The notes under the pieces were generated by a model, which saw nothing but the letters and a program-made list of their open reading frames with translations, was not told where the DNA came from and made no database searches. Of a stretch of 7,310 nt of DNA, positions 1 to 4,181 are shown in pieces. A program made the position numbers and the translations under genes. The DNA comes from a virus (taxonomy: Duplodnaviria > Heunggongvirae > Uroviricota > Caudoviricetes): IMG/VR virus record IMGVR_UViG_2541047905_000008; one strand, written 5' to 3'. How positions within the stretch are numbered: the first letter of the stretch is position 1; every line of letters begins with the position of its first letter.

Positions 1-165
1 CTCATGCTGGCGAACCCAGACACGCAGAGTCTCCGGCGTACAGCCAATCTTTGGAGCAATGGAACAAATTGTCGCCCATTGTGAGTCATATTCGCCCTGA
101 CTTTCCAGAACCATACGGACTGCCCGTTGACGGACTTCAGGGGAAAAACGAGTATTTTTAGTCAT
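1..165 (-). CDS. IS3-family transposase OrfA (helix-turn-helix), N-terminal 55 codons; partial, continues beyond window start
   Basis: Reverse-strand translation from the ATG at 165-163 gives [55 protein letters not shown], open to the window edge. It is absent from the supplied ORF track because it has no stop in the window. The sequence matches the N-terminal HTH region of IS629-type OrfA from memory. Confidence 0.8.
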
Positions 166-219
166 CCTGTTTACCTCTTTCTCAGGAAGTTTAGTCTCCA
201 GGATTCCCGGGGCGGTTCA
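1..219 (-). mobile_element. IS3-family insertion sequence (IS629/IS1203-like), one end only; the rest lies left of the window
   Basis: Reverse complement of 196-219 reads TGAACCGCCCCGGGAATCCTGGAG, a TG-initiated terminal inverted repeat typical of the IS3 family, followed about 55 nt inward by the transposase OrfA start. The OrfA N-terminus matches the IS629/IS1203 OrfA as I recall it. The exact terminal nucleotide (219) is inferred from the TG...CA end rule. Confidence 0.75.
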
Positions 220-3153
220 CTTAATGAAACCACAGAGGAATTGAGCGGGGTTGCGCAAGCGCAGAGAGAAGCCGAGAAGGCCGGAAAACTTGCTGCCGCC
301 CAGCAGGAAGCGCAGACTCAGGCCTTTCAAAGAATGCTGGACAAGATCGACCCTCTGGCTGCGGCGCTAAGAAATCTTGAACAACAGCAGGATGAACTTA
401 ATGCTGCGTTTGCATCCGGGAAAATAAATGGTTCTCAGTTTGAGAATTATAGCCGAAAAATACAGGAAACACGGCGAGAGCTTACCGGAGAGGCTCAGGC
501 AGAGCGAGAAGCAGCAAAAGCGCATGATGAACAGGTTGCTGCTTTGCAACGTCTGATTGCTCAACTTGACCCTGTCGGAACTGCTTTTAATCGTCTGGTA
601 GAACAACAGAAACAGCTCAATGAAGCAAAAGCTAAGGGGATGCTCTCTCCTGAAATGTATGAGGAACTTTCTGGAAAACTTCGTGCTATGCGGAGTGAGC
701 TTGAGGTTACTCAATCTCAATTAAGCAAAACCGGAATGTCGGCAAAACAAACGGCTTTTGCTATGCGCATGTTGCCTGCACAAATGACGGATATTGTTGT
801 TGGGTTGTCCACTGGTCAGTCGCCTTTTATGGTGTTAATGCAGCAGGGCGGCCAGCTAAAAGATATGTTCGGTGGGATTGGCCCGGCGATCAAAGGTGTT
901 GGTTCTTATGTGCTGGGATTAATTAATCCTTTTACCCTGGCCGCAGCAGCCGTTGGCGTCTTAGGGCTGGCTTACTATAAAGGCTCTCAGGAGCAGGACG
1001 AATTTAATAAGTCTCTTATTCTTACCGGAAATCAGTTGGGGACAACCAGCGGGCAATTGGCCGATATAGTTCAACGTGCCGGGAATGCGGCTGATTCGAC
1101 AACTGGCGCTGCGGCGGCAGTATTAAACCAGCTTGTGCGTTCGGGAAAGGTAGCGAGCAGTTCGCTGGAGCAAGTGACGACAGCGATAGTAAAAACGAGC
1201 GAAGTAACAGGAATATCAACCGAACAACTGGTTAATGACTTCAATGAAATTGCAAAGGATCCTGTCAGTGCCATATCAAAACTTAATGATCAGTACCATT
1301 TTCTGACAATTGCGACTTATAACCAGATTAAGGCGCTACAGGATGAAGGGAACCAGCAGGAGGCCGCCCGCATTGCGACAGAAGCATACTCATCCTCAAT
1401 GATCCAGCGCACCAACCAGATTAAAGAAAATCTTGGTTATCTTGAGACTGCATGGAAAGCTGTCGCAGACTCCGCAAAATGGGCATGGGATTCCATGCTG
1501 GATATTGGCCGTGAGGCCTCCCTTGATCAAAAAATCTCAGATGTTCTCCGTCAAATTGATGAAATAGAAAAAAATACCCGACCCGGAGTTTTCGGGTTAG
1601 GTGGCATTGGAGATGGCGGAGCTCAAAATAAAAGGCTGGCACGATTAAAGCAGCAATTGGGCGTACTTCAAGCAGAAAAAATTGCTCAGGACGTACTAAA
1701 TTCATCAATAAACGATTACAACAAGCGACAACAGGAAGGAATTGAACTCAGACAGAGAGCAGATGCCTTTTCAAAACAATATCAGACCCGGGAGCAGCAG
1801 AGAGCTAGTGAACTTGCAAAACTGGAAAAACTAAAGAGTCAGTATTCAAAGGAAGAATATAATAATCTTATCGCTCAAATAAATGAGCGTTATAAAGATC
1901 CAAAGCAACCAAAGGCGAAAGGTTATTCGGATGATGCTGCCCAACGAATGATTGATCATCTGAATCAACAGAATGCGTTACTAAGTTCACAAACTGAATT
2001 AACCGTTAAATTAAGTTCCTCTGAACAGGAACTGGTTAAGTGGCGTCAGCAGATTGCCGACCTGGAGTCACGACCGTCATCGAAATTAACCAAGGATCAG
2101 AAATCGCTTCTCTTACACCGGGAAGAAATAACCGCGTTGATGGAGAAAAATGTTGCGATTGAAAAAAATAACAGGCTAATCAAGGAATCCGCCGAAATAG
2201 CTGCATGGCGTGATTCATTGCAGGCTTCGATTGATAATCGTCAACAGGGGTATGATATTCAGATTGCTGGTTATGGGGTTGGCGATAAAAATCAGCAACG
2301 CCAGCAGGAATTACTGCGGATTGAACGTGAATATAACAATCAGCGTCTGCAACTTGAACGTGACTATGCAGATAAATCCCGTGGGATGTCAAATCATGTT
2401 TTTCAGGAGAAAATGCAGGCTCTGAATGATGCTCTGGAACGAGAAAAAGAAATTGTCAGACAGAAAAACGAGCAGCTCGATATTCAGGCAGGAGACTGGG
2501 TTAGTGGTGCCTCCCAGGGATTCAATAACTGGCTGGATGACACTAAGGATATCAGTGAGCAGATAAAATCAACCACGACTCAGATGTTTGATGGAATGAC
2601 CGATGCGCTGGGTGATTTTGTCACGACAGGCAAAGCAAATTTTCGTTCTTTCGCTACTTCCGTGATTTCGGATCTTAGTCGAATAGCATTAAAGGCTTCA
2701 ATTACTGGGATTTTCGACAGCATTAGTAACAGTTCTTCTGGGGGGATTTTAGGAACTATCGGGAGTGCTATTAGTAAATTTATTCCGAATGCAAAGGGCG
2801 GTGTTTATGAGTCTCCGTCATTGAACACGTATTCGAACGGTATTTATGATTCCCCGCAATTTTTTGCTTTTGCAAGAGGGGCTGGTGTTTTTGGTGAGGC
2901 TGGTCCGGAAGCCATTATGCCATTAACACGAACTTCCGATGGTTCTCTTGGTGTCAGAGCTGTTAATAGTAAAAGTGGTAATGGAGGCGGAGATATTACC
3001 TATGCCCCTGTATACCAAATCACTATTCAAAATGACGGCCAGAATGGAGAGATTGGCCCTCAGGCAATAAAAGCACTTATGGGGATGGTTGATCAGCGGG
3101 TGCAGGGCAATCTGTTAAATATGCGACGTGATGGGGGAATGTTAAGTGGCTAA
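220..3153 (+). CDS. H: Phage tail tape measure protein (lambda gpH-like), 5' end interrupted by the IS element; 978 codons of tape-measure sequence
   Basis: Long ORF (track 127..3153) whose first 31 codons lie inside the IS terminal sequence, so the phage-derived part starts at 220. It has a coiled-coil-rich N-terminus, a conserved AMRMLPAQ...GQSP...QQGGQ.KD.FGG segment, a central hydrophobic/Gly-rich region, a [11 protein letters not shown] motif and a C-terminal [15 protein letters not shown]...RDGGMLSG tail resembling the lambda gpH C-terminus. It sits directly upstream of M-L-K-I-J. No in-frame ATG occurs until 334, so the native start is probably beyond the IS. Confidence 0.85.
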
Positions 3154-3478
3154 TACGGAAGAATTTCACTGGTTACCAGAGGATGGAATGAAAACAGAAA
3201 ATAAACCATCGATAAAAACTGTAAGATTTGGCGATGGTTATGAGCAACGAAGTCCAAATGGACTTAATCATTCTCTGCGCGTTTTCACCTGTGATTTCAA
3301 AGTTGAGGCGAATGAACGTGATTCATTTGAAAAATTTTTAGCCCGGCATGAAGGCTATAAATCTTTTTTTGGCGCCCGCCGGGTATTAACAGAAAAATCA
3401 GAGTGGTGTGTCGAACGTGGTCAGCGACAGAACATATCACCTATACCGATTTTTCGTGTCAGTTTGACGAAGTGGTGA
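3146..3478 (+). CDS. M: Minor tail protein M (lambda gpM homologue), probably frameshifted near the 3' end
   Basis: GTG start at 3146 overlaps the tape-measure stop (3151-3153), with a GGGGGA Shine-Dalgarno at 3133-3138. The N-terminal part, including [16 protein letters not shown], aligns with lambda gpM (VRFGDGYSQRAPAGLN). After the T7 run at 3364-3370 the lambda-like C-terminus continues in another frame. Alternative in-frame ATG at 3188. Confidence 0.8.
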
Positions 3479-3482
3479 TCTG

Positions 3483-4181
3483 ATGCAGGACATACAACAG
3501 GAAACGCTGAATGAATGCATTCGTGCGGAGCAGTCGGCCAGCGTGGTGCTCTGGGAAATCGACCTGACCGAGGTAGGCGGGGATCGCTACTTTTTCTGTA
3601 ATGAGCAGAACGAAAAAGGTGAGTCTGTCACCTGGCAGAGTCGGCAGTATCAGGCCTATCCCATTCAGGGGAGTGGATTTGAGATGAACGGCAAGGGCAG
3701 TGCTGCCCGTCCGACACTGGCGGTCTCTAACCTGCACGGCATGATCACCGGGATGGCGGAAGATCTGCAGAGTCTGGTCGGCGGAACGGTGGTCCGGCGT
3801 AAGGTTTACGCCCGCTTTCTGGATGCGGTGAACTTCGTCAACGGAAACAGCGAAGCCGATCCGGAGCAGGAGGTGATCAGCCGCTGGCGCATCGAGCAGT
3901 GCAGCGAACTGAGCGCGGTCAGTGCCTCTTTTGTACTGTCCACGCCGACTGAAACGGATGGCGCTGTTTTTCCGGGACGTATCATGCTGGCCAACACCTG
4001 CACCTGGACCTATCGCGGCGATGAGTGCGGTTATAGCGGTCCGGCGGTCGCGGATGAATATGACCAGCCGACGTCCGATATCACGAAGGATAAATGCAGC
4101 AAATGCCTGAGTGGCTGTAAGTTTCGCAATAATGTCGGCAACTTTGGCAGCTTCCTTTCCATTAACAAACTTTCGCAGTAA
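3483..4181 (+). CDS. L: Minor tail protein L (lambda gpL), 232 aa, tail tip complex component with C-terminal Cys cluster
   Basis: The 232-aa ORF MQDIQQETLNECIRAEQSASVVLWEIDLTEVGG... is near-identical to lambda gpL as recalled and the same length. The C-terminal cysteines (CTWTYRGDECGYSG ... CSKCLSGCKF) are consistent with the reported Fe-S cluster ligands of gpL. The ATG at 3483 is adjacent to the end of M. Confidence 0.95.
   Translation: MQDIQQETLNECIRAEQSASVVLWEIDLTEVGGDRYFFCNEQNEKGESVTWQSRQYQAYPIQGSGFEMNGKGSAARPTLAVSNLHGMITGMAEDLQSLVGGTVVRRKVYARFLDAVNFVNGNSEADPEQEVISRWRIEQCSELSAVSASFVLSTPTETDGAVFPGRIMLANTCTWTYRGDECGYSGPAVADEYDQPTSDITKDKCSKCLSGCKFRNNVGNFGSFLSINKLSQ

Follow-up and report, generated by a model that had tools for sequence, protein, structure and literature searches.

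A probable one-base deletion in a T8 homopolymer breaks the reading frame of tail gene M in a prophage with an interrupted tape measure gene

Introduction

Tail gene M in a 7,310-nt stretch of viral DNA (IMG/VR record IMGVR_UViG_2541047905_000008; the whole stretch is referred to here as the window) contains a run of seven T residues, after which the annotated reading frame and the frame expected of a gpM-type protein part company. The question raised by this locus is whether the T7 run is a genuine deletion from an ancestral T8, an error in the length of a homopolymer of a source genome that truly carries T8, or a site at which the frame is meant to shift. We compared the window with related genomes, phages, protein families and solved structures, and weighed the three readings against each other.

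Results

Reading frames of gene M

In the window sequence, the T7 homopolymer occupies positions 3364-3370, inside the 0-frame ORF that runs from GTG 3146 to TGA 3476-3478 and encodes 110 aa. The 0-frame codons over the tract read TCT TTT TTT GGC, with codons beginning at 3362, 3365 and 3368, and translation of the -1 frame from 3370 yields 37 residues followed by TGA at 3481-3483. The preliminary description of this DNA had placed a -1 frameshift in M at this run, and all of its coordinates and both of its peptides proved exact. It had further claimed that the restored frame would regain a 1-nt stop/start overlap with gene L, and this was indeed seen, base 3483 being common to the TGA of M (3481-3483) and the ATG of L (3483-3485) in the sequence TGATG. 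The GTG start of M in turn overlaps the stop codon (TAA 3151-3153) of tape measure gene H, and in the restored frame M lies between the tape measure gene and L with stop/start overlaps on both sides. The features of the region are as follows.

1-219, minus strand: end of an IS3-family insertion sequence, comprising the N-terminus of a transposase; interrupts the tape measure gene
220-3153, plus strand: 3' part of H, the tape measure gene, beginning near codon 101; stop TAA 3151-3153
3146-3478, plus strand: gene M as read; residues 1-75 only (to 3370) represent authentic gpM
3364-3370, plus strand: T7 run, putative site of a 1-nt deletion; T8 in relatives; 0 frame U_UUU_UUU
3370-3483, plus strand: -1 frame segment, authentic C-terminus of M (37 residues and TGA); in frame in the T8 relative
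3371-3475, plus strand: out-of-frame tail of the M ORF (last 35 residues), followed by TGA 3476-3478
3483-4181, plus strand: intact gene L for the tail tip hub protein, 232 aa; PF05100; relatives have WP_001152432.1, 'phage minor tail protein L'

The start of M is annotated in two ways, at GTG 3146 (RefSeq) or at ATG 3188 (vB_EcoS phage records). We favour GTG 3146 because the alignment with lambda gpM opens at residue 6 of the GTG-start protein.

The -1 frame as the C-terminus of M

As encoded, M matched Pfam family PF05939 (Phage_min_tail) with 77.6 bits over model positions 1-87, and the restored protein matched it with 109.8 bits over positions 1-108 of 108 (cut-off, 39 in both cases). The -1 frame, and not the 0-frame ORF, supplies model positions 88-108. 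M in the window accordingly scores above the cut-off without full coverage of the domain in any one frame, and is a disrupted member of the PF05939 family. In a phmmer search of solved structures, residues 6-111 of the restored protein aligned without gaps to residues 3-108 of lambda gpM (8iyk_M; E = 2e-25). This alignment takes in the KSFLWTPP...EFSAEFEQVV stretch of lambda gpM, in agreement with the earlier claim that the alternative-frame peptide fits the lambda C-terminus better than the annotated one. Since the T8 relatives described below encode exactly that end in frame, and since it completes both the PF05939 match and the gapless alignment with lambda gpM, the -1 frame represents the authentic C-terminus of M and no chance resemblance.

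Length of the T run in related genomes

A 461-nt query around the tract matched 715 complete E. coli genomes with at least 80% coverage. Only two of these complete genomes (YDC107 and Z1322HEC0009) were 100% identical over 461 nt; in the next 58 genomes listed, the 461-nt query was matched over 462 nt of the record. When the window was aligned with both T7 genomes, T8 strain 7/2, Escherichia phage vB_EcoS-473R12 and Salmonella phage SPF_0923, a single T, present in the T8 and missing from the T7 sequences, was the sole difference over 162 columns. The T8 gene encodes an in-frame protein of 112 aa (WP_000024051.1) ending in ...CQFDEVVI, and T8 is also found in related isolated phages, the two in the alignment included.

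The frequency of each tract length was then assessed with a 67-nt query centred on the tract, which found this M allele in 707 complete E. coli genomes. Exact T7 matches were present in at least 7 of the 707 (YDC107, 64.1, GDAR2-2, CUVET20-1667, Z1322HEC0009, SW071611 and GPEC673) and an exact match to a synthetic T9 query, in which the frame is also broken, in at least 1 (E. coli S30, NZ_CP010231.1, 491989-492057); both counts demand exact flanks of 66-69 nt and are lower bounds. A synthetic T6 query had an exact match in none of the 707 genomes. About 99% of the 707 genomes carry T8 with an intact M. Tract length varies in both directions, with deletions being more frequent (7 T7, 1 T9, 0 T6).

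In a collection of 15 billion proteins, the exact T7 product was present on 363 contigs with the ATG start and on 92 with the GTG start, and the T8 product, with either start, on 1000 contigs or more, a bound from which no T7:T8 ratio can be derived. In a contig index, the exact T7 product occurred in 562 and 123 blocks, mostly from contigs of 2-20 kb.

According to the preliminary description, M has lost its authentic C-terminus through a change from T8 to T7, the missing nucleotide being due either to a pseudogenising mutation or to an error in sequencing the homopolymer; it had suggested counting the Ts in intact homologues. Both the count, with T8 in about 99% of 707 E. coli genomes, and the one-base difference from close relatives that keep T8 speak for a change in this direction, and the relatives, PF05939 and lambda gpM together support the loss of the authentic end. 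It had also considered that intact prophages might carry T7 and the ...RVSLTKW end as their normal state. The RefSeq copies with T7 that we examined are instead all annotated as frameshifted pseudogenes: in all 7 of the 7 T7 genomes, the gene already carries the label 'phage tail protein, frameshifted' from the NCBI pipeline (RefSeq). The frameshift in M is an ordinary homopolymer frameshift, identical alleles having been flagged in RefSeq.

A second lesion in the tail module and the neighbouring genes

The tail module carries a second lesion, independent of that in M, namely an insertion sequence in H. Over bases 1-219, the window matches multi-copy E. coli elements at 100% identity; these carry the annotation 'IS3 family transposase', and the insertion sequence is, judging by its terminal repeat, probably IS629/IS1203-like. 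Homology to the tape measure gene begins at 219-220, corresponding to about codon 101 of a 1077-aa protein. The IS/H junction of the window was found in none of 5,426 complete E. coli genomes, the species-representative genomes or the fetched loci, and the truncated tape measure product, taken from either of two candidate starts, had no exact match in the contig index. Identity of the window with YDC107 was considered and rejected: despite identity over 461 nt, bases 1-219 differ (the insertion sequence being in the window) and 82 substitutions are present downstream. At other T7 loci, H likewise contains IS1 or IS5-type insertions or is truncated. The insertion in H indicates a tail module in decay, which fits relaxed selection; the frameshift in M would then be a neutral change.

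Two A7 runs are present in the tape measure gene (1568-1574 and 2162-2168), both in frame in the window; these could be further hot spots for indels. Several public T7 contigs contain single-base indels somewhere in the tape measure gene.

The GC content changes at the M/L border from about 42-45% in H and M to about 55-60% in L, K, I and J. In about 3,600 E. coli genomes and in lambda, the match to the window starts only at 3461, at about 89% identity, and the H-M part is found in about 700 genomes. A mosaic joint thus lies at the M/L border (about 3450-3461), with the recombination point falling within the last 20-30 nt of M. Farther downstream, K ends (stop 4930) about 100 nt inside the longest ORF of tail assembly protein I, which opens at ATG 4828; RefSeq records place the start of I differently, and the products are accordingly 182-215 aa long. 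Upstream of the tape measure gene in related loci, ydaY (PF27119) and a 66-aa ORF occupy the position of the lambda G/T chaperone (1871-2538 of locus L006 and 1-657 of locus L001), and their presence there ties the module to Rac-type prophages.

Mutation or sequencing error

At least eight haplotypes carry T7; they differ by 8 to 59 substitutions when compared over 2.2 kb, and by as many as 120 over 1.8 kb, and YDC107 (T7) differs from strain 7/2 (T8) by zero substitutions. These distinct haplotypes, and the pair without a substitution, show that T7 arises recurrently. Three separate assemblies (GCA_964051075.1, GCA_900449265.1 and GCA_012530775.1) have T7 on one shared haplotype of 6.3-8.3 kb, within which they differ by 0-1 substitutions and by no further indel, which shows that real, inherited T7 alleles exist. 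The 2.2-kb haplotype of the window itself is mostly seen with T8, and repeated T7 on that haplotype is therefore no proof of inheritance.

On the rival reading, the source genome would truly be T8 and M intact in the organism, with T7 being introduced by a homopolymer-length error in sequencing or assembly. Indel errors in 454, PacBio and Nanopore data classically fall in runs of 7-8 identical bases. T7 at about 1% on unrelated haplotypes, together with a T9, is what random miscalls would also yield, and further 1-nt indels fragment the tape measure gene, K or J in some T7 contigs (L012, L015, L018, L019 and L024-L028). These extra indels, a signature of error-prone reads, suggest that part of the T7 population in the databases is artefact. 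The window, however, shows no other indel relative to its closest relatives: its comparison with YDC107 revealed none across 3.3 kb around the tract (2500 nt upstream and 800 nt downstream), and an ungapped comparison of the remainder, the IS junction aside, revealed scattered substitutions only. No frame is interrupted in H (from the IS junction), L, K, I or J, indicating that the window is not generally error-ridden. The clonal haplotype with T7 in three independent assemblies also stands against random miscalls, as do the 562 and 123 blocks of the contig index, whose contigs of mostly 2-20 kb are presumably largely derived from short reads, in which length errors in 7- or 8-mers are uncommon. 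Across databases the evidence is mixed, but for the window's own T7 it leans towards a real allele and away from a read or assembly error.

We consider a real T8-to-T7 deletion, most likely generated by replication slippage in a decaying prophage, to be the best reading of the T7 run in the window (probability of roughly 0.65); an intact M hidden by a miscalled homopolymer is a possible but distinctly less probable explanation. In E. coli genes, U7/A7 motifs are under-represented, a deficit that the authors of that study ascribe to transcriptional slippage or a high rate of indel mutation (PMC4066793).

The T7 run as a recoding site

If T7 were a site of programmed recoding, a ribosome slipping by -1 on U_UUU_UUU, or an RNA polymerase adding a U, would produce full-length gpM by design. 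A slippery heptamer, as expected for programmed -1 frameshifting, is present at 3364-3370 exactly in phase (0-frame UCU UUU UUU), and a -1 slip on it yields KSFFWRPP..., identical to the T8 product. Without a stimulator, U_UU.U_UU.U is moreover one of the heptamers at which frameshifting in E. coli exceeds 0.1%, and it falls within the H_HH.U_UU.Y class that is efficient when a stimulator is given (PMC4066793). Yet no stimulatory RNA structure was detected in the 80 nt downstream of T7, the predicted fold of which is no better than that of shuffled sequences (z = -0.99), and these 80 nt are identical in T8 alleles. Nor is the two-frame arrangement conserved among homologues: about 99% of these, and the isolated phages, have T8 and need no shift, and T7 is rare, scattered over unrelated haplotypes and unconserved within a clade. 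Selection against slippage-prone A/T runs in coding regions is also evident from only about 9 nt upward in many bacterial genomes (PMC1088944). Designed recoding was rejected on account of the lack of significant downstream structure and of conservation of T7, and we regard it as highly improbable. Low-level accidental rescue of gpM by slippage on the deleted allele is plausible, given that U_UU.U_UU.U supports more than 0.1% frameshifting without stimulators in E. coli.

Discussion

Proposed consequence for gpM

The course of events that we propose for M, the distal tail protein gene of a siphovirus tail resembling that of lambda, starts with deletion of a single base from its T8 homopolymer (T8 to T7). 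Beyond Phe75, translation would then run out of the authentic frame through 35 unrelated residues to a stop at 3478; gpM, a beta-sandwich protein, would lack its 37 C-terminal residues, and M the TGATG overlap of its stop with the start of L. The distal tail protein of lambda is gpM, which is ordered throughout its 109 residues as a beta-sandwich; six copies make up a ring between the tail tube's final ring and the gpL/gpJ hub (PMC10721106). Because the stacked beta-sandwich takes in the entire 109-residue chain of lambda gpM, loss of the last third would be expected to destroy the fold. Replacement of the 37 C-terminal residues by 35 unrelated ones should, by analogy with that structure, abolish folding and ring assembly, and we infer that the truncated product is non-functional.

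It is also conceivable, though in our view improbable, that mutation recurs at the T8 tract in such a way as to turn the tail module off and on repeatedly (from T8 to T7 or T9, then back again), and that the T7 allele might be partly non-null, with slippage on the in-phase heptamer or stuttering of RNA polymerase restoring some wild-type gpM. If the T7 allele were leaky in this manner, a small fraction of gpM might allow some tail assembly, since a virion requires only six copies.

Taken as a true deletion, the frameshift in M would, together with the insertion sequence in the tape measure gene, mark the tail module of this prophage as defective. The 110-aa ORF is better annotated as a frameshifted gpM-type pseudogene than as a protein with a novel C-terminus. 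Beyond such annotation hygiene its significance is slight. The presence of T7 in about 1% of genomes, with one T9, is a small, clean illustration of how homopolymers in prophage genes can change in length, and of how they can be misread in sequencing.

Comparison with known systems

Lambda gpM (distal tail protein; PF05939; 8iyk chain M) and M of the window belong to the same family and align over about 106 residues without gaps when the frame is restored. They differ in that the M of the window has diverged in sequence (phmmer E = 2e-25) and has its last third out of frame. The window and lambda also share the order of the tail genes (H-M-L-K-I-J) and, in the restored frame, the one-base stop/start overlap of M and L, whereas in the window an H-M module of lower GC content is joined to lambda-like L-K-I-J.

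Lambda G/GT is a conserved programmed -1 frameshift in the tail assembly chaperone, located upstream of the tape measure gene, and gives two products by design. Like the site in M, it lies among the tail genes of a siphovirus and has a slippery heptamer as the place of a -1 shift. Unlike lambda G/GT, the site in M is a rare variant of an in-frame gene, is not conserved, and had no stimulator detected downstream.

Pseudogenes in RefSeq (for example, YDC107_RS24275 and WHT89_RS03200) have the same T7 allele as the window. They are located in other genomes and contexts, and none has the IS3-family junction of the window in its tape measure gene. The intact T8 allele encoding WP_000024051.1 ('phage tail protein'), present also in phages vB_EcoS-473R12 and SPF_0923, is identical in DNA over the 162 aligned columns save for one T and has the same flanking genes in the same order; unlike the T7 allele of the window, it encodes an in-frame protein of 112 aa.
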